DNA from: a virus
Lineage: Duplodnaviria; Heunggongvirae; Uroviricota; Caudoviricetes
DNA length: 46,987 bases
Reading direction: 5' to 3' (one strand)
Virus record (IMG/VR): IMGVR_UViG_2526164667_000034
Under the pieces are notes generated by a model. The model worked only from the letters and a program-made list of their open reading frames with translations, did no database searches and had not been told where the DNA came from. Shown piece after piece: positions 1-45,211 of the stretch. Within the stretch, counting starts at the first letter, position 1. The number at the start of each line of letters is the position of its first letter. The translations under genes were made by a program, and so were the position numbers.

Positions 1-1158
1 ATGCTCACCGTTAAGCAGATTGAAGCAGCAAAGCCGAAAGAAAAACCATACCGCCTTCTCGATGGTAATGGCCTGTACCTTTATGTTCCTGTATCCGGGA
101 AAAAGGTATGGCAGCTTCGCTACAAGATTGACGGTAAGGAGAAAATCCTGACCGTCGGAAAATATCCGCTAATGACTTTGCAGGAGGCAAGGGATAAGGC
201 ATGGACTGCGAGGAAAGACATCTCGGTTGGCATCGATCCGGTAAAGGCGAAAAAGGCTTCGTCTAACAACAATTCCTTTAGTGCGATTTACAAGGAATGG
301 TACGAGCACAAGAAGCAAGTATGGTCAGTAGGGTATGCGACTGAACTTGCAAAAATGTTTGATGACGACATTTTGCCTATCATCGGCGGCCTTGAAATTC
401 AGGATATTGAGCCGATGCAACTGCTGGAAGTAATCCGCAGATTTGAAGATCGCGGTGCAATGGAGCGAGCAAATAAAGCCCGCAGAAGATGCGGCGAGGT
501 TTTCCGTTACGCTATTGTCACCGGCAGGGCTAAATATAACCCGGCACCTGACCTTGCTGACACCATGAGGGGATACCGCAAGAAGAACTTCCCGTTTCTT
601 CCTGCAGACCAGATCCCGGCATTCAATAAAGCACTGGCAACATTTTCAGGAAGTATCGTATCGCTCATTGCCACCAAGGTTTTACGCTACACAGCCCTAA
701 GAACAAAAGAGCTTCGTTCCATGCAATGGAAGAACGTCGATTTTGAAAACAGGATTATCACCATTGACGCCAATGTGATGAAGGGACGCAAAATTCATGT
801 TGTCCCGATGTCGGACCAGGTGGTTGAACTTCTCACTACGTTAAGCTCCATCACCAAACCAGTATCAGAATTTGTTTTTGCCGGGCGCAACGATAAGAAG
901 AAGCCAATCTGCGAGAACGCGGTGCTACTTGTGATCAAACAAATCGGCTATGAGGGTCTGGAAAGCGGTCACGGATTCAGGCATGAATTCAGCACGATTA
1001 TGAACGAGCACGAATGGCCTGCTGACGCTATTGAAGTGCAACTGGCACATGCCAACGGCGGATCTGTGCGCGGTATTTACAACCATGCTCAGTATCTCGA
1101 TAAGCGCAGAGAAATGATGCAATGGTGGGCGGACTGGCTTGATGAAAAGGTGGAGTGA
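1..1158 (+). CDS. int: Tyrosine integrase, P4 family (IntS-like, argW-integrating type)
   Basis: 385-aa ORF from the track. N-terminal arm-binding region plus C-terminal catalytic domain (HGFRHEF, RGIYNHAQY). Recalled as close to E. coli CPS-53 IntS; not verified by search. Lies at the prophage end opposite attR. Confidence 0.9.
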   Translation: MLTVKQIEAAKPKEKPYRLLDGNGLYLYVPVSGKKVWQLRYKIDGKEKILTVGKYPLMTLQEARDKAWTARKDISVGIDPVKAKKASSNNNSFSAIYKEWYEHKKQVWSVGYATELAKMFDDDILPIIGGLEIQDIEPMQLLEVIRRFEDRGAMERANKARRRCGEVFRYAIVTGRAKYNPAPDLADTMRGYRKKNFPFLPADQIPAFNKALATFSGSIVSLIATKVLRYTALRTKELRSMQWKNVDFENRIITIDANVMKGRKIHVVPMSDQVVELLTTLSSITKPVSEFVFAGRNDKKKPICENAVLLVIKQIGYEGLESGHGFRHEFSTIMNEHEWPADAIEVQLAHANGGSVRGIYNHAQYLDKRREMMQWWADWLDEKVE

Positions 1159-1402: not shown

Positions 1403-2545
1403 TCAAGGTGCTTCTCTAACGGATTCAGTTTTAATTGAAGATACATCTGATTTTTTTTGCATTCTACGAGCGATGGCATGCCCTATGGATACTGATGGTT
1501 TTTCAATAAAGTTATAAGATATGATTGATATAATAAAAGTAGCGCAAATCATAGCTAGAAAAACACCAAATCCTTTACTATCCAATACCCCGTACGGTTT
1601 GAGATATAAAACAGCAAGACTGTATACAACCATATGATTAATGTAAAGTGAATAGGATATTTCACCAACATACGTTAGAATTTTATTTCTATATACATCC
1701 CTACACTTAGAAATAAGGACTATTGGGGCTATAATCATAAATGAATAAGCCCCCCATGCTACAATTCCAGGTCCATTCCTTAACCCTAGGCATAAAAAAA
1801 GCAAGGCAATCGCTAATGTAATATTAAGAAATTGAACAACAGGCATTTTATTTATAAGTCTAGAAGGTAGCCTAATGTAGGCCTCTGCAATAATCATCCC
1901 CAAAATAAAGTCATATATTATTGGATTTGATACAAATACCAGATTACGAATAATTCCATCACCAGATGGCGGTTGCGCGATAGGATTTAGAAAAACATCT
2001 CCGTGAAAGTACAGTTGACCAAGAACGCAAATAATGATGAGAAGAAATGATGCGATCGCAGTTCTATATTTATGGCTGATGCATAATGAAAAAAAGAAAA
2101 CCACATAGAACCAAATTTCATACGTTAGTGTCCATGCAGGTATTATTATACTATAACCTGACCATGGCCCTATAAAATTATAGTCAATTGGTATGAGCAA
2201 GTAGCTCTTTATTATTTGTGATGATGTATATATTGCCTCATAGTTGAGGTATATAGCCAGAGTAAGGATTATAAAGTAAACAGGGTACAACCTAAAAAAA
2301 CGCTTAGCAGCAAACACCATTGGCCGGTTTTTTGCCTTATTCATTGAAGAATAAGTAATGATAAATCCACTTATAACAAAGAATATATCAACACCAACCT
2401 CACCTATACCAAAAAGAATGTCGCCCAAGTCCTTTTGGGCATACACTCCATTTAAATATACTCTAAAGTGAAACGCAATGACTAGAAGTACCGCGATCCC
2501 TCTAAGGACTTGAATAGAGTCTAACTTATTTGTTTTTCTTTCCAT
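1403..2545 (-). CDS. Acyltransferase family 3 membrane protein, putative O-antigen O-acetyltransferase (lysogenic conversion)
   Basis: 380-aa ORF, multi-TM, with N-terminal motif LRGIAVLLVIAFHF typical of OafA/Oac acyltransferases. Very AT-rich (roughly 32% GC). Sits between int and tailspike, where P22-like and Shigella phages carry serotype-converting genes. Confidence 0.75.
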   Translation of the reverse strand: MERKTNKLDSIQVLRGIAVLLVIAFHFRVYLNGVYAQKDLGDILFGIGEVGVDIFFVISGFIITYSSMNKAKNRPMVFAAKRFFRLYPVYFIILTLAIYLNYEAIYTSSQIIKSYLLIPIDYNFIGPWSGYSIIIPAWTLTYEIWFYVVFFFSLCISHKYRTAIASFLLIIICVLGQLYFHGDVFLNPIAQPPSGDGIIRNLVFVSNPIIYDFILGMIIAEAYIRLPSRLINKMPVVQFLNITLAIALLFLCLGLRNGPGIVAWGAYSFMIIAPIVLISKCRDVYRNKILTYVGEISYSLYINHMVVYSLAVLYLKPYGVLDSKGFGVFLAMICATFIISIISYNFIEKPSVSIGHAIARRMQKKSDVSSIKTESVREAP

Positions 2546-2615
2546 ATCAAAATGTGTTTTACTGATTTTTTTTAAACATACCAGATCAAAGTAATCATTT
2601 CAATACATAGGTCTT

Positions 2616-4489
2616 TTAAAAGTTTCCCTCTGATAAGAAAGAATAGGTTCCTGGCCCACCTGGAATATTGCATGTCCATGCCTTTGGTTGTCCTGAAGCA
2701 GGTGCGCTATTGATAACACGCTCACCTATATCCCAGAAACCGGATGTAGGTACTGACGAAAGATAAAATGTTGTTTTTTCAACTTGCAACGCGTTTGATG
2801 GCATTCCATATGCACATAGAGAAGGTGAGTTTATGAGTACATTTCCTGAACCATAATTTCTTATACCAACATTTATAGCTGTATCAGTTTCGTATATATA
2901 CACACCACAACTAACATAGCTCCATTTCCCATTACCAGCTAAAGGTGCTGTAGAGTCTGTTTGTCCTGCACCATTAATTATAAACATAAGTTTTGACGCT
3001 GATCCCTGGTCATTGACCCACGCACCAAACCATACAAATTTCCCTTTTAGTTCTGGTGATTTGTTGAGGTCTATCGTTCGTCCCCAAACTCTATCTCCTG
3101 TCGTAACTAAGAATGAATAATTACCAGCATAGATGTTTTGAGTTTTTATCAATGTTCCTGTAGTTCCAGATGCCGCAGTCCAGAGCAACATATTTCGATC
3201 AAGATAGTTAGCAGTTAACTCTCTGTTCGCAATATCTATTAAATGCGCAGTGTCAGGGTTTTGTGTCGCCGGGTCATAACTACCAACGTATCCGATGGAG
3301 TTCACTGTGTTGTTGGCAAGATATAGCCTGTCAGTAACTTTGGACGAAAGATTATTGTGGTACATTGCTAATAAATTATTCACTTTCGATGCGTCTAATA
3401 ACTGATTATTTTCAATCGTCAGGTTTTTCGCATAGTTCGTGAAAATAAATCCGTCTTGGTTAGGTAGCGCGCTGGCGTAGCCAATCGCGGTCTGCTGATT
3501 CCCGCGAATAGATACGGTATCATTAATTTTTGAAAGGTCAGGAATTAATGTAAAATTGTTCGCGATAAGGTGGATATCCGCACGTACTGTAATAGACTCA
3601 GGTACTCTATACTGGTAACCAATCTCACCGTTGCGTTCCCAATAGTTATCATCAAGGTTAAGGCCTTTAACCCCGTAAGCCAAAAGTCCGTAGAACTTAT
3701 TTTGCTCTATATTGTTGCCATTAACTCTGACGCTCATACCGCCCTCAGCGTAAGCTGGCGTAAGTAAAACTCCACCGGCTCCGTTACCATAGATACGGCT
3801 GTTGATTATATTAATATTATTGCAGTAACCACCAACATTAATACCGTTACCGGCGTTTTGAAACAACCGGCACCCAATGATGTCAATGGAGTAACCGTTA
3901 ACTAATATTGCGTTGTTATTAGTATTAACCACGTCAATATTTTCTATTTTAATGTGGTTGGCTTCAGTAAGACTGATGCCGTTAGCTGCGTAGCCATTTC
4001 CGTCAAGACCAAAGTCCCTGAACTCGCAGAACGTAATTACCCCATCTTGTTGCGTGATTATCGGTGCCGCTGTACCCGTAGAGAAAATTCTGGACTGATA
4101 TGCGCCAGCACCTCGTATCATGGTGACAGTATTCTTAATCGTAATACCAGGGTCAACAATGAACGCCCCCTCTGGTATAACAATCTCAGTTGGCAACGTA
4201 GCATCATCAATAGCCTTCTGAAATGCAGCTTTGTTCTGAGCACCGGTGTTTCCCTCAGCAAACCCGTAGTCTGTAAGCGTCCTCAGGTCGATAGTTAGCT
4301 TTTTTGAGAGAATGGTCGATGTGCTATCGACAAACTGTGGGTTATGCATGACTAGAGAGTCGCCAAGTGAGTGATCTTCGCTCAGGAGATTGCCCTTAAA
4401 CTGATCTGGATCATACTTTAGCACATTCGGAAAATAGAACTGCTGCGCACCGTATGCATCATAAACAGCCATAGAATGGCCTTGCACAG
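2616..4489 (-). pseudogene. Tailspike, C-terminal receptor-binding part (gene interrupted by IS2)
   Basis: Track ORF 2616..4517; its first 9-10 codons (MSGDSGGQS) are translated IS2 terminal sequence. The genuine part starts at [11 protein letters not shown], which continues the P22 gp9 head-binding domain. The long Asn/Gly-rich body fits a beta-helix tailspike and is not P22-like. Confidence 0.85.
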
Positions 4490-4580
4490 TAGACTGGCCC
4501 CCTGAATCTCCAGACAACCAGTATCACTTATTTAAGTGATAGTCTTAATACTAGTTTTTAGACTAGTCATTGGAGAGCAG

Positions 4581-4946
4581 ATGATTGATGTCTTAGGACC
4601 GGAGAAACGCAGACGGCGTACCACACAGGAAAAGATCGCAATTGTTCAGCAGAGCTTTGAACCAGGGATGACGGTCTCCCTCGTTGCCCGGCAACATGGT
4701 GTAGCAGCCAGCCAGTTATTTCTCTGGCGTAAGCAATACCAGGAAGGAAGTCTTACTGCTGTCGCCGCCGGAGAACAGGTTGTTCCTGCCTCTGAACTTG
4801 CTGCCGCCATGAAGCAGATTAAAGAACTCCAGCGCCTGCTCGGCAAGAAAACGATGGAAAATGAACTCCTCAAAGAAGCCGTTGAATATGGACGGGCAAA
4901 AAAGTGGATAGCGCACGCGCCCTTATTGCCCGGGGATGGGGAGTAA
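4581..4946 (+). CDS. insC: IS2 transposase OrfA (InsC)
   Basis: Track ORF 4536..4946; true start taken at [18 protein letters not shown]... (121 aa), recognised as IS2 InsC. Confidence 0.85.
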
Positions 4947-5809
4947 GCTTAGTCAGCCGTTGTCTCCGGGTGTCGCGTGCGCAGTTGCACGTCATTCTCA
5001 GACGAACCGATGACTGGATGGATGGCCGCCGCAGTCGTCACACTGATGATACGGATGTGCTTCTCCGTATACACCATGTTATCGGAGAGCTGCCCACGTA
5101 TGGTTATCGTCGGGTATGGGCGCTGCTTCGCAGACAGGCAGAACTTGATGGTATGCCTGCGATCAATGCCAAACGTGTTTACCGGATCATGCGCCAGAAT
5201 GCGCTGTTGCTTGAGCGAAAACCTGCTGTACCGCCATCGAAACGGGCACATACAGGCAGAGTGGCTGTGAAAGAAAGTAATCAGCGATGGTGCTCTGACG
5301 GGTTCGAGTTCCGCTGTGATAACGGAGAAAAACTGCGAGTCACGTTCGCGCTGGACTGCTGTGACCGTGAGGCACTGCACTGGGCGGTCACTACGGGCGG
5401 CTTCAACAGTGAAACAGTACAGGACGTCATGCTGGGAGCGGTGGAACGCCGCTTCGGCAACGAGCTTCCGGCGTCTCCAGTAGAGTGGCTGACGGATAAT
5501 GGTTCATGCTACCGGGCTAATGAAACACGGCAGTTTGCCCGGATGTTGGGGCTTGAACCGAAGAGCACGGCGGTGCGGAGTCCGGAGAGTAACGGCATAG
5601 CAGAGAGCTTCGTGAAAACGATAAAGCGTGACTACATCAGTGTCATGCCCAAACCAGACGGGTTAACGGCAGCAAAGAACCTTGCAGAGGCGTTCGAGCA
5701 TTATAACGAATGGCATCCGCATAGTGCACTGGGTTATCGCTCGCCACGGGAATATCTACGGCAGCAAGCCAGTAATGGGTTAAGTGATAACAGGTGTCTG
5801 GAAATATAG
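4904..5809 (+). CDS. insD: IS2 transposase OrfB (InsD), DDE catalytic domain
   Basis: 301-aa ORF overlapping orfA in the -1 frame (frameshift fusion architecture of the IS3 family); recognised as IS2 InsD. Confidence 0.85.
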
Positions 5810-5820
5810 GGGCAAATCCA

Positions 5821-6078
5821 CACAGTTACGAACTTGGCAATCTGTCCGTTATATACAGGGTAACCAGCAGCGTTAATGATGATTGGTTGCGAAACAGGAA
5901 CGTGAGAACCATCTTCGTTCTCTACATAAACCTGAATCTGGTTTTCAGGATTTACCGGGTCAGTGTCAATTTTACCGATATAAATTTTGCCATTGGCTAC
6001 AGCTTTAAAAGAACGCGCCATAGTGAAGAGTTGCGAAGGCATCGATACGATCACATTGGCATTTATTGAATCTGTCAT
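5821..6078 (-). pseudogene. Tailspike, N-terminal head-binding domain fragment (P22 gp9-like)
   Basis: [62 protein letters not shown]...KFVTV matches the P22 tailspike N-terminus as recalled. Fragment lengths minus the duplication give an in-frame 708-codon ancestral gene. Confidence 0.85.
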
Positions 6079-6136
6079 TTAATTTGCTCCAGATACAAGG
6101 AATCGCCGCAGCGTGGCTACGGTGAATTTTGGGCAT

Positions 6137-6159
6137 AAAAAAACCCAGCCGAAGCTGGG
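6137..6159 (-). terminator. Rho-independent terminator downstream of ant
   Basis: Hairpin CCCAGC-CGAA-GCTGGG followed on the minus strand by a 7-U run. Confidence 0.6.
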
Positions 6160-6200
6160 TCGTTGCGTTGGTTATTGACCTACACTTTTCGTGCAGGTAG

Positions 6201-7136
6201 TTAAAGTTTTATTGAGTGGCACGCTCTATCACGTATCGCTGCGAATGAAGCTATCTCTTTAAGTGCCCAGCTTTGCTCAGCCATTAAATGGCGAAGTGCT
6301 TTTAGTTCAGCTCTTACTGCTGAAACGTCATACCCCGCTTTTGTCAGAATATTGATTAGTTTATACGCCGGACTGCATTCAACGAGTGCGCTGCGGTCAA
6401 GAGCAACAGTATCACCGCATTGCTGCCTGATAATGGCGTAAGGTGCATTTTCAGCAAACCATGAAATCGGGAAGTTAATATCCAGTTTTGGCGCTGGTAA
6501 CTCTTCTTGTTTGCCAATGAACTCACCTTCAAGTGGAACTCGAGCTGCAAGTGACAGTGCTTCGGTGAACTGCTCCTCACTGATTTCTTTGTACGAACAT
6601 CCAAAATGGGATTTCAGTGAGGACCACATGGTGATCATCGCCTTAGCCTGTTTTTCTTTTGGCAGAGACTGACCACGACTCATGACGAGTTGTTTAATGG
6701 CTTCCTGCTGTTCAGTGGTGATTTTACCCGGCAACGCCTTTTTAGCTTTGCGTGGGTTAAATACATGACCTTTAGTCCAGTAGTCATGCAGCACGCTAAA
6801 GCATTCTTCCTGGTACTGAATCAGTTTATCACGGATGTCAGCACGAACTTTCTCAGGGTTGATGCTGAACAGCCATCCATTTAACTTCTTCAGCGGGATG
6901 CATAAAAGCTTACGTAACTTGCCATCAGCAGCAACCATAGAGATATCTCTACAGTTGAATTTGTCCTTCATTTTACGCAACTTAACAGATTGACCAGTCC
7001 AGTCGATACCAATGTTTTCCACAATTTGACGCATCGCTACATAAGTCACTCCGGCAGCCACAGCGGTTAAAATCTGCTGACCATTGAAAGGCACGTAAGA
7101 GGTGTTCACTGCTTCTAAAATTGCTATACTATTCAT
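6201..7136 (-). CDS. ant: Antirepressor Ant (P22 immI-type)
   Basis: Start trimmed to [21 protein letters not shown]... with GGAG RBS; track ORF extends to 7202. Recognised as P22-type antirepressor; adjacent to arc and mnt. Confidence 0.85.
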
Positions 7137-20893: not shown

Positions 20894-22110
20894 GGCTGTG
20901 TATATCCTGCCGGGGTAGCTCCAGCGATAATGTTGCCAGATTTATCTCTCACTTCGCGCAACGGCAAGAACGCTGGGCGTTTCTTGTTGCGAGCCTCCCA
21001 GTGCTTCTCAAGTCCACGAATTTGCTCCATGCCAACTATAGGGATCTGACCGGGGTCTTGCGCTGCAGTATCAGCCAGCATTGATACCTGAAGGTTATAC
21101 AAACGCTGTGGATCCATTGCTTTTGCAATATGTCCTTCGACACGCTCAATGTCATCAATGAACCAGCGTTTTCCATAAACCGGGATGAGGGGGATATGCT
21201 CACCAGGAATACGTCGAGGTTTCTCAAGGAAACCATCACCATCCACTACGGATACATACACACGACGGCGCTTCACTGAGCGCCTTGCCACTTCCTGAAA
21301 TCCAGCTATTGCCAGTTCATCTTCAATATCTTCAACCTGATCACTGTCGTATGTTGCAATCTCTCCAGTGATTGGATGTCGATAACTGATGACGTCAACA
21401 GACTCTTTACGAACTTCGTAATACTTCGCTATGTAAATAACATCTGCATCAAACCAGTCATATTCCCAACTGGTCATAGACGTTACATCCAGAGAAGCAG
21501 GAGGTTTCTTTCCGTATTCAGCCTCATATTTTTCAGGTGACAACGAATACATGCAGAACGCCCACAACGCGTCAGATTTGTCGTACTTCTTAGCGTCAGG
21601 GTCAAACCACACAGAGCGCGACGGGTCGTATATTGGTTCAATAGCAATACGCTGACGATCGTCCATGGGGTCGTATTCATTGACCAGCATCGACGTCAAA
21701 CGGAAGCAACCGAAACCACCAGTAGCAGCGTCGTCAAATGCATTATCGCAAGCCTCACCGCCATCGGTTTCTTCGTAGTCAGCACGGAACAGACCATTTA
21801 ATTTATTGGCTAACTCTTCGCTTGCCTCTCTGTCACCAGGACGAAACTTAACAGTGATTCTGTTATTGCGGTATTCTGCAATGATGCGGTTAAGTTCAGT
21901 TGCTACCTTATTGATTTCAAACTTAGGATACTTCTCGAACTGCTCATCAAGCTTAGTTCCAGCCGCCGTTGCTCCTTCCCATTGACCTCCGGGGACACGA
22001 GCAAACCTCGTAGCTTCAATGCACTTTTCGCGCACTTCCTGCTGTGGAGAATAGGCGCGGTCAAACCTGAGCATGATCCGCTCATGTTTTTTCTCTAATG
22101 TCTCTGCCAT
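20894..22110 (-). pseudogene. Portal protein, N-terminal fragment (gene interrupted by IS629-like element)
   Basis: Track ORF 20659..22182; start trimmed to MAETLEKKHERIML. The C-terminal 78 residues of the track ORF (PEPPRVPGECF...) are translated IS sequence. Body aligns to P22/Sf6 portal. Confidence 0.8.
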
Positions 22111-22112
22111 GT

Positions 22113-23525
22113 TTACCAACCGGAGGATGAGGGAACGTATATTTCTGTTTCTTCGCGGACCAATGCCGGGCAATGCATACACATCATCAGCGCATCAGCC
22201 AGGTTAGGAGATGGGATACCGAGCTTCTGCTTCATTTCGACCTTAGTCATAAGCTCCAGCTTCCCGTTATTATTGAATTTGCGCTGAATCTGCGTCAGTT
22301 CTGCAAACAGCTTCTCCAGCATCTTCTCGCCTATCGCTTCTTTGTCGAAGCTCAGCATGTCGTCGGGGTCTGCATACTCACCGTGGACAACCGCCCGATA
22401 TGTCAGATACAGCCTGTCAGCCAGCGCGTAATAGAATTGCGCTCGCTTATTGCGGAATACATCGCCAATAGTGCGAACGTTGTCGCCCTGTACGACTTCA
22501 TCAGCCCATGCTCCGGCCTGATAAGGCCCATCTTCATCGAATGGCGATTCGCTGCCCTTGAACATCGTGGCGGTAATTTTCTTGCCGGAGAATGCTTCCG
22601 TTGTCTGTCTGCGTAGGCCCGCACCGACGCCATCACCGTCCCACAGGTAATGGTCAGCGCCGTCTTCAATCGCCAGCGAAGTAGCCCAGTCAGCACCCTC
22701 GTTGATGTCCATCAGCAGACCTTCGGCAATGCGCTTAACTACCGAACCGTGACGCGATGCATAACCTTTAGCATCTGGCCCTGTATCTGATGGGTCATGC
22801 GCAGAAACAACCGCACCTTTCGCTTTCCACCCGAGTTTCGTGTGCGCATCGGTTGCGGCTTCAAGCCATTCACGTTTGATGATTGCCATATCACTTGCGC
22901 TTACCGGCTCACCAAGCCAGATGTGACGATACAGTGTCGGATTTCTGCGTTTACACTCTTCCATCTCCAGACGGAGGACTTCAGGAAAATGCGGGTTGTC
23001 GGTGTAGTTCACCGTCAGCAGGCAAATATCATCGGGAGGATTTACGACGAATCGCTGATAGGTATCGTCGAGGATGTTTTTCGGGTTGAAACTTACCCAT
23101 ATTTCAGAGAACGGCTTACGGATGGTTGGAATCAGGATATCCCACGATTCCTTCGTTACCGCTTCCGCTTCTTCCACCCAGCAGATATCAATGCCTTCGA
23201 GCGATTTAATCTTCGTCGGGTTGTTTTTGATGCCGTAGAACATGAATTCAGCATTCGTTCCGAGATGACGAATCATTGAACGCTGAATTTCAAACTCAGC
23301 CGAATACCCTTCACGCTCGATGGTGTCTTCAAGCAACCTGATTACCGAATCGCTGATACTGTTTTGCAGCTCACGAGCGCAAAGAATACGCACAGGCTGC
23401 CGACGCGCCGCTTCAACAAGAAGCCTCGCAATTGCCCATGACTTACCGCTACCTCGACCGCCTTTAGCGACTTTGTAGCGATGCGCCTCAATGAACGGTT
23501 CAAAGATAGGATTAATCGAGGTCAT
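22113..23525 (-). CDS. terL: Terminase large subunit (Sf6 gp2-like)
   Basis: 470-aa ORF with Walker A (KGGRGSGKS) and C-terminal nuclease region; upstream of portal, downstream of terS. Confidence 0.9.
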   Translation of the reverse strand: MTSINPIFEPFIEAHRYKVAKGGRGSGKSWAIARLLVEAARRQPVRILCARELQNSISDSVIRLLEDTIEREGYSAEFEIQRSMIRHLGTNAEFMFYGIKNNPTKIKSLEGIDICWVEEAEAVTKESWDILIPTIRKPFSEIWVSFNPKNILDDTYQRFVVNPPDDICLLTVNYTDNPHFPEVLRLEMEECKRRNPTLYRHIWLGEPVSASDMAIIKREWLEAATDAHTKLGWKAKGAVVSAHDPSDTGPDAKGYASRHGSVVKRIAEGLLMDINEGADWATSLAIEDGADHYLWDGDGVGAGLRRQTTEAFSGKKITATMFKGSESPFDEDGPYQAGAWADEVVQGDNVRTIGDVFRNKRAQFYYALADRLYLTYRAVVHGEYADPDDMLSFDKEAIGEKMLEKLFAELTQIQRKFNNNGKLELMTKVEMKQKLGIPSPNLADALMMCMHCPALVREETEIYVPSSSGW

Positions 23526-25027: not shown

Positions 25028-27459
<2,432 letters not shown>

Positions 27460-44770: not shown

Positions 44771-44953
44771 TTGGGGAAATCACAAATGCACTTCCGAGTC
44801 ACAGGTGAATTGAATGGAGAACCATTCAACAGAGTTATCGAAGCAGAGGACATCAACGACTGCTATGACCACTGGATGATATGGGCGCAGATAGCACATG
44901 CAGACGTAACCAATATTCGAATTGAAGAACTGAAAGAACACCAAGCCGCCTGA
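44771..44953 (+). CDS. Small hypothetical protein
   Basis: 60-aa track ORF (possible internal start MHFRV) ending in a terminator hairpin. Confidence 0.35.
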   Translation: MGKSQMHFRVTGELNGEPFNRVIEAEDINDCYDHWMIWAQIAHADVTNIRIEELKEHQAA

Positions 44954-44968
44954 TGGCGGTTTTTTATT
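44945..44968 (+). terminator. Rho-independent terminator upstream of xis
   Basis: GCCGCC-TGATG-GCGGT hairpin followed by TTTTTTATT. Confidence 0.7.
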
Positions 44969-45010
44969 GCCTGATTTGCAGGTTCGATTCCCTATTCGGA
45001 GATAGCACTC

Positions 45011-45211
45011 ATGCAACACGAACTACAACCTGATTCACTGGTTGATTTGAAATTCATCATGGCTGATACTGGCTTTGGTAAAACCTTCATCTACGACCGG
45101 ATTAAGTCCGGCGACCTGCCTAAAGCCAAAGTTATCCACGGTCGAGCAAGATGGTTATATCGTGACCATTGTGAATTCAAAAATAAGCTCTTAAGCCGCG
45201 CTAATGGGTAA
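45011..45211 (+). CDS. xis: Excisionase / AlpA-family DNA-binding protein
   Basis: 66-aa ORF; ...LKFIMADTGFGKTFIYDRIKSGDLPKAKVIHGRARW... is a typical AlpA/Xis winged-helix motif. Last phage gene before attR. Confidence 0.75.
   Translation: MQHELQPDSLVDLKFIMADTGFGKTFIYDRIKSGDLPKAKVIHGRARWLYRDHCEFKNKLLSRANG

Follow-up and report, generated by a model that had tools for sequence, protein, structure and literature searches.

The stretch of DNA analysed here, called the window below, is the complete 46,987-nucleotide viral record IMGVR_UViG_2526164667_000034 (Caudoviricetes), which can be assigned to a P22-like prophage of Escherichia coli. The tailspike gene of this prophage, on the minus strand, lies in two fragments separated by a copy of the insertion sequence (IS) IS2, a member of the IS3 family. 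The fragments, the parts of IS2 and the other features discussed are listed in Table 1, in which IRL and IRR stand for the left and right inverted repeats of IS2. An earlier note, made from the letters of the window, had described the split gene, and several of its statements are taken up below where the results bear on them.

Table 1. Positions of the split tailspike gene, its IS2 copy and other features in the window
Feature	Position	Strand	Basis
Prophage integrase IntS; adjoins argW tRNA-Arg in sister genomes	1..1158	+	Domain match; DEC9B annotation
Acyltransferase-3 family gene, intact, just downstream of the tailspike gene	1403..2545	-	PF01757; WP_000440209.1
Tailspike 3′ fragment: residues 87 to ~114, linker, beta-helix body, C-terminal beta-rich region, stop	2616..4489	-	Beta_helix match; structure model
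Target-site duplication copy CACAG, next to IRL	4485..4489	.	Sequence reading
IS2 (IS3 family), 1331 bp	4490..5820	+	Ends; 100% identical copies; transposase domains
IS2 IRL, terminus 5′-TAGACTGG	4490..4531	+	Terminus type as in PMC3299598
IS2 orfA/orfB, giving the OrfAB transposase by a -1 frameshift	4581..5809	+	orfA 4581-4946; orfB frame ends at 5809
IS2 IRR, terminus ...AAATCCA-3′	5780..5820	+	As in PMC3299598
Target-site duplication copy CACAG, next to IRR	5821..5825	.	Single CACAG at the empty site
Tailspike 5′ fragment: codons 1-86, first three quarters of the P22-type head-binding domain	5821..6078	-	PF09008; P22 and Sf6 alignments
IS1203/IS629-type element, flanked by GGC, splitting the portal gene	19585..20893	+	Absent from three sister genomes
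IS100 (IS21 family, istA/istB), between a Rha-family gene and the lysis genes	~25505..27457	+	Absent from three sister genomes

The interrupted gene and its IS2 copy

The reading frame of the 5′ fragment continues for 28 codons into IS2 to give a 114-amino-acid open reading frame (ORF) at 5734-6078, and the frame of the 3′ fragment is open from 4489 as far as the stop codon at 2616-2618. When IS2 and one of the flanking repeats are removed in silico, so that 2616-4489 is joined to 5826-6078, a single minus-strand ORF of 2127 nt (708 codons and a stop) is obtained, as the earlier note had claimed. The tail protein of Escherichia phage N7 aligns with the restored protein from end to end and without a break at the junction, at 100% coverage and 65% identity. 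The outcome that the note had named as refuting its reading, a failure of the fragments to align as one contiguous tailspike, was therefore not obtained. The idea that the two fragments are separate genes, encoding an adaptor and a depolymerase, was ruled out by this single colinear protein and by the uninterrupted alleles described below.

The N-terminal part of the restored protein is of the P22 type. Residues 4-114 match the Pfam family Head_binding (PF09008) with E = 2.6e-65, the head-binding domain of the P22 tailspike aligns with residues 5-116, Sf6 gp14 aligns with residues 1-257, the solved tailspike structures of P22 and Sf6 together cover residues 1 to about 116, and the HK620 tailspike is 92.7% identical over residues 1-123. 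As the gene stands, the domain is broken at codon 86 of about 114, and IS2 therefore sits inside the head-binding domain. This result corrects the earlier statement that IS2 separates the head-binding domain from the receptor-binding body: the gene is split as described, and the break is intradomain. The tailspikes of P22, Sf6 and HK620 share with the restored protein the N-terminal PF09008 domain and a right-handed beta-helix body; the window gene differs from theirs in that its body lacks detectable sequence similarity to that of P22 and is only weakly similar to that of Sf6, and in that it is interrupted and presumably non-functional.

The inserted element was identified as IS2 to the base. 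It is exactly 1331 bp long, its left terminus reads TAGACTGGCCCCCTGAATC and its right terminus GGGGCAAATCCA, corresponding to the IRL and IRR of IS2, and the two ends (TAGACTGGCCCCC... and ...GGGGCAAATCCA) form imperfect terminal inverted repeats. CACAG, which in the tailspike gene comprises the second and third bases of codon 85 and all of codon 86, directly abuts both ends; the probability that 5 bp at set positions beside the element would match by chance is 1/1024. A 5-bp target duplication is the norm for IS2, and an empty site with a single copy was found in related genomes (see below). The catalytic centres of IS2 are spaced 5 bp apart (PMC3299598), and its IRL has been described as a 42-bp sequence, 5′-TAG...TTAA, with a TA-3′ end and its IRR as a 41-bp sequence, 5′-TTAA...AATCCA-3′ (PMC3299598). 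The A6G slippery motif AAAAAAG, known from the IS2 frameshift window (PMC3219604), is located at 4898-4904 within the overlap of orfA and orfB. OrfA contains the domain HTH_Tnp_1 and OrfB the domains HTH_21, rve and rve_3, as is found in DDE transposases, and the transposase is encoded on the plus strand, opposite to the tailspike gene. The earlier description of a full IS2 between CACAG direct repeats is thus accurate. The window copy shares with IS2 of E. coli its length, the TA and CA ends of IRL and IRR, the A6G window, the HTH and rve domains and the 5-bp duplication; it is a sequence variant with no functional difference.

The window was compared with 5426 complete E. coli genomes, none of which matches it in full (best coverage 95% and 91%). 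IS2-like sequences occur in 4846 of these genomes, and most copies are 95-99% identical to that of the window. Full-length copies that are 100% identical to it and are annotated as IS3-family or IS2 transposase are present in several genomes. In strain DEC9B there are no mismatches within IS2 at the equivalent locus, where RefSeq gives a joined coding sequence for an IS3 family transposase with a programmed frameshift and no pseudogene flag. The window copy is intact in sequence, with undamaged ends and transposase, and this and the identical copies at other sites suggest that it may be competent in transposition.

Origin, age and consequence of the insertion

An uninterrupted allele of the gene is present in about 100 complete E. 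coli genomes, at 99.8-99.9% nucleotide identity and with a single CACAG; the earlier note had suggested that such IS-free alleles be sought. In strain 2013C-3277, for example, an intact 2127-nt gene is annotated as 'phage tailspike protein' (WP_032345496.1), the empty site reads ...GGCCTTGCACAGTTACGAAC..., and the body differs from that of the window at 2 nt. In three other complete genomes, DEC9B (human), F2_407_2_2 (bovine) and 7_33_46A (bovine), both IS2 junctions are base-identical to those of the window, and in the RefSeq annotation an IS3-family transposase gene stands between two pieces of a tailspike pseudogene. Because the junctions are common to these three sister genomes, the insertion must have been inherited and is not private to the window strain.

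The insertion is still young, because IS2 is identical to other copies in the sister genomes and its flanks are nearly unchanged. When the window is compared with DEC9B and with the intact allele of 2013C-3277, only two positions of the body vary: 3613, which distinguishes 2013C-3277, and 3606, at which the window alone has a nonsynonymous change from AGT to AGA (S379R) that is seen neither in DEC9B nor in the intact alleles. This substitution is compatible with relaxed constraint after inactivation, as far as a single change can indicate. Of the earlier description of the insertion as recent and clean, the cleanness and the youth have stood, and 'recent' holds only in a relative sense, since the insertion is common to three genomes and predates two further IS elements in the window.

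These are an IS1203-type element and IS100. The IS1203-type element, of the IS3 family and 100% identical to annotated IS1203 copies, separates portal gene fragments at 18672-19574 and 20659-22182 on the minus strand. IS100 is 99.7% identical to annotated copies and encodes istA (25591-26613) and istB (26610-27392); its boundaries are good to about 6 bp, its ends and duplication being known only to a 6-bp overlap. Because both elements are missing from the three IS2-bearing sister genomes, IS2 struck first, and IS1203 and IS100 later. Such an accumulation of IS elements is the textbook pattern of progressive prophage decay, during which the acyltransferase gene beside the tailspike gene stays intact.

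Almost certainly, then, a P22-like prophage at argW had its tailspike gene struck by a transposing IS2, and the insertion was inherited and followed by further decay through IS elements. A single copy-out-paste-in event placed an intact IS2 in the tailspike gene of an N7/HK620/Sf6-like prophage at this site, duplicating the target CACAG at codons 85-86 and splitting the gene within the head-binding domain. The event took place in a common ancestor of the window strain and at least three sequenced strains, and in the window strain IS1203 (in the portal gene) and IS100 (beside the lysis cassette) then struck the same prophage. The host is an E. coli lineage related to DEC9B, probably of serotype O26:H11, as suggested by the sister genomes.

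As it stands, the 5′ fragment encodes only 86 tailspike residues and an out-of-frame tail of 28 residues, and the 3′ fragment has no native start. In P22 the spike trimer is anchored to the tail hub through its N-terminal domain, and spike-less particles cannot adsorb. By analogy, the product of the 3′ fragment, even if translated, would be without most of the hub-docking domain, and particles from the window prophage would have no functional spikes and would not adsorb; strains such as DEC9B could at best release non-infectious, spike-less heads. The split of the portal gene would be a second lethal hit, by which virion production is blocked twice over, and because this gene is also broken in the window, no DNA-filled particles at all are to be expected. 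The prophage retains an intact acyltransferase gene with a promoter-like site of its own, and the host thus probably keeps an O-antigen-modifying function.

Nothing contradicts the inherited IS2 insertion, and the points that weigh against it are limits only. The loss of function is read from the sequence; late transcripts may read through IS2 and allow reinitiation at the TTG at 4517, although the product would still be without residues 1-86; and the serotype of the window strain is derived from sister genomes, none of the complete genomes compared matching the window in full. An IS2-split tailspike gene of this kind is ordinary and already known, because public genomes carry and annotate it, and the meaning of the locus beyond its annotation is small: the prophage should not yield infectious particles, and its three IS hits can be ordered. 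The shared IS2 junction can serve as a clonal marker for a sub-lineage of DEC9B-like, probably O26, E. coli.

Other IS2 copies have been found near the starts of P22-like tailspike genes. DETEC-P829 (locus L003, 5110-6440) and F8 carry an independent IS2, a variant of 96.6% identity that is flanked by the duplication CTTGG. It interrupts the part of the tailspike gene that encodes the head-binding region, 12 bp from the CACAG site and in the same orientation; its host locus is a different P22-like prophage remnant at argW that carries gtrABC. IS2 copies are situated no more than about 0.5 kb from the start of the tailspike gene in GPEC87-32-644 and FACU 2024, and a two-piece match suggests a similar position in GPEC79-13-647.

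These insertions bear on the alternative that inactivation was selected or is reversible, the head-binding region being a favoured IS2 target and IS2 silencing virion production while conversion and immunity genes are kept. The independent IS2 only 12 bp away, the copies within about 0.5 kb of tailspike starts and the intact acyltransferase gene speak for this alternative, and an association of IS2 target choice with the curvature of the local DNA has been described (PMC3299598). Moreover, according to an overview preprint, an excision enhancer (IEE) acts on IS3-family elements in pathogenic E. coli. However, the 5426 genomes yielded only two independent events, in a pattern recognized post hoc; insertions in prophage genes are expected to persist in any case, since they do the host no harm or even benefit it; and IS1203 and IS100 in the same prophage indicate generic decay. 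Furthermore, the gene for the excision enhancer is absent from the window, and no revertant was identified. This alternative is therefore improbable. The clustering of IS2 could reflect a regional target preference or mere tolerance by the host of insertions in a prophage; a true hot spot is unlikely, as it is rated on two events recognized post hoc, and we regard it as doubtful that the tailspike 5′ end (codons ~80-90 and the adjacent immI region) is a preferred landing site. If it were, IS2 would repeatedly and independently disarm P22-like prophages while sparing their O-antigen-conversion genes, and the disarming might be reversible in strains with an IS-excision enhancer.

It is still less probable that the 3′ fragment is made as a free, virion-independent O-antigen depolymerase. 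A 633-codon ORF (2616-4517) is indeed open from a TTG codon that lies 28 nt inside IS2, within IRL, and P22 tailspikes without the N-terminal domain fold and are enzymatically active. However, no promoter-like or Shine-Dalgarno-like sequence precedes the TTG, and a scan of 2400-6400 for promoters and terminators that might serve the 3′ fragment yielded no more of them than shuffled sequence does. In IS2 the promoter on the IRL side is directed inward, and the minicircle junction that it helps to form likewise reads into the element (PMC3299598). The private S379R substitution also fits relaxed constraint, though it is a single change.

Finally, it is extremely improbable that an IS2 copy was misplaced during assembly and that the tailspike gene is really intact, because, although IS2 at 13-16 places per genome in the relatives and a second copy of the body, 93-94% identical, in many O26 genomes are repeats that can confuse assemblers, base-perfect junctions with a 5-bp duplication are not expected from mis-assembly and the same junctions recur in three independently assembled complete genomes.

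The receptor-binding body and its probable target

Beyond residue 116 the restored protein has no detectable sequence similarity to the body of the P22 tailspike, and weak similarity to Sf6 extends to residue 257. The Pfam family Beta_helix (right-handed) matches residues 222-327, and the intact allele, modelled with AlphaFold, is all-beta from residue 152 to about 420, with values of the predicted local distance difference test (pLDDT) of 80-96 over this part. The mean pLDDT of the model is 66.7, the N-terminal 151 and C-terminal 64 residues being poorly modelled. In a Foldseek search of the PDB the top matches were tailspikes and depolymerases of Sf6, of CBA120 (TSP4), of Klebsiella phages and of P22, with low template modelling scores (TM-scores) for the whole model (0.2-0.35) because of these poorly modelled termini; therefore, the search backs the fold class only and no specific relative. 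These results identify the body as a right-handed parallel beta-helix, the usual fold class of tailspikes, in a sequence family other than that of P22. The earlier view that the receptor-binding part is not P22-like has thus been confirmed: similarity to P22 ends at about residue 116, where a different beta-helix module follows.

A similar module is found on another anchor. The body (residues 114-707; 2616-4270 in the window) shares 94% identity with the 594 residues at the C-terminus of 873-amino-acid tailspikes of phiV10/epsilon15-like (Uetakevirus) prophages, several of which are named as from E. coli O26; these differ from the window protein in their N-terminal anchor, which is PF18668 instead of PF09008. 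The same body module thus occurs on two unrelated anchors, often within one genome. This distribution fits horizontal exchange and a specificity for O26.

Receptor-binding proteins of prophages in O26 strains, namely of a Lederbergvirus in RM10386 and of a Uetakevirus in E2865, have been assigned to serogroup O26 on the strength of evidence for horizontal transfer (PMC10408124); the RM10386 protein is a candidate for the window allele. Strain E2865 also has an intact P22-type tailspike allele. Because the body is found on two anchors in O26 strains, and in view of the published O26 assignment and the E2865 allele, the receptor is probably the O26 O-antigen. A homotrimer that cleaves the O-antigen, with O26 as its target, can be predicted on circumstantial grounds. 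The restored 708-amino-acid sequence may therefore be used as a template for a probable O26-specific tailspike, of which intact copies are already public.

The surrounding prophage and its neighbouring genes

The late and immI regions of the window are 98.1% identical to those of phage N7 (MH717096) over 97% of 13.5 kb, and parts of the late region are 95-97% identical to HK620 and Sf6. N7 also shares with the window a tail protein that is colinear over all 708 residues; this protein is only 65% identical, and may represent a different receptor-binding variant, and in contrast to the window N7 has no IS elements within the matched region. The late genes form a set and order of the P22 type (terminase, portal, scaffold, coat, gp4/gp10/gp26, ejection proteins, immI arc/ant and tailspike), as read from the RefSeq annotation of the colinear DEC9B locus. 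In DEC9B the argW gene for tRNA-Arg is followed by intS, the acyltransferase gene, the split tailspike gene, immI (ant, arc) and the genes for ejection proteins, and then by tail and head genes, terminase, lysis genes, Q, nin, replication genes, cII/cro/cI, erf and torI, beyond which lie the chromosomal csc sucrose genes. By these sequence relationships the prophage is a P22-like one (Lederbergvirus-type, of the N7/HK620/Sf6 group) at the KplE1/argW site.

The window begins exactly at the start codon of intS, and therefore does not include the left attachment site (attL) or the tRNA; consistent with this, a tRNA scan of the window found none, the argW tRNA of the attachment site lying just outside. 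The acyltransferase gene, whose own promoter-like site at 2603-2575 has an extended -10 element, is a probable O-antigen acetylase gene and, as such, a gene of lysogenic conversion.

A homologue of torI, encoding a TorI-type excisionase, is placed at ~44900-45200 by colinearity with a related locus (L006, 18548-18748). The integrase gene thus marks one end of the prophage and the excisionase gene the other, an arrangement shared with KplE1 at argW of E. coli K-12. KplE1 (CPS-53), a defective prophage, has intS and torI at its ends and O-antigen-modification genes beside intS, and in these respects and in its integration site it matches the window prophage. However, KplE1 is a small remnant, whereas the window prophage has almost a full gene set and represents an earlier stage of decay.

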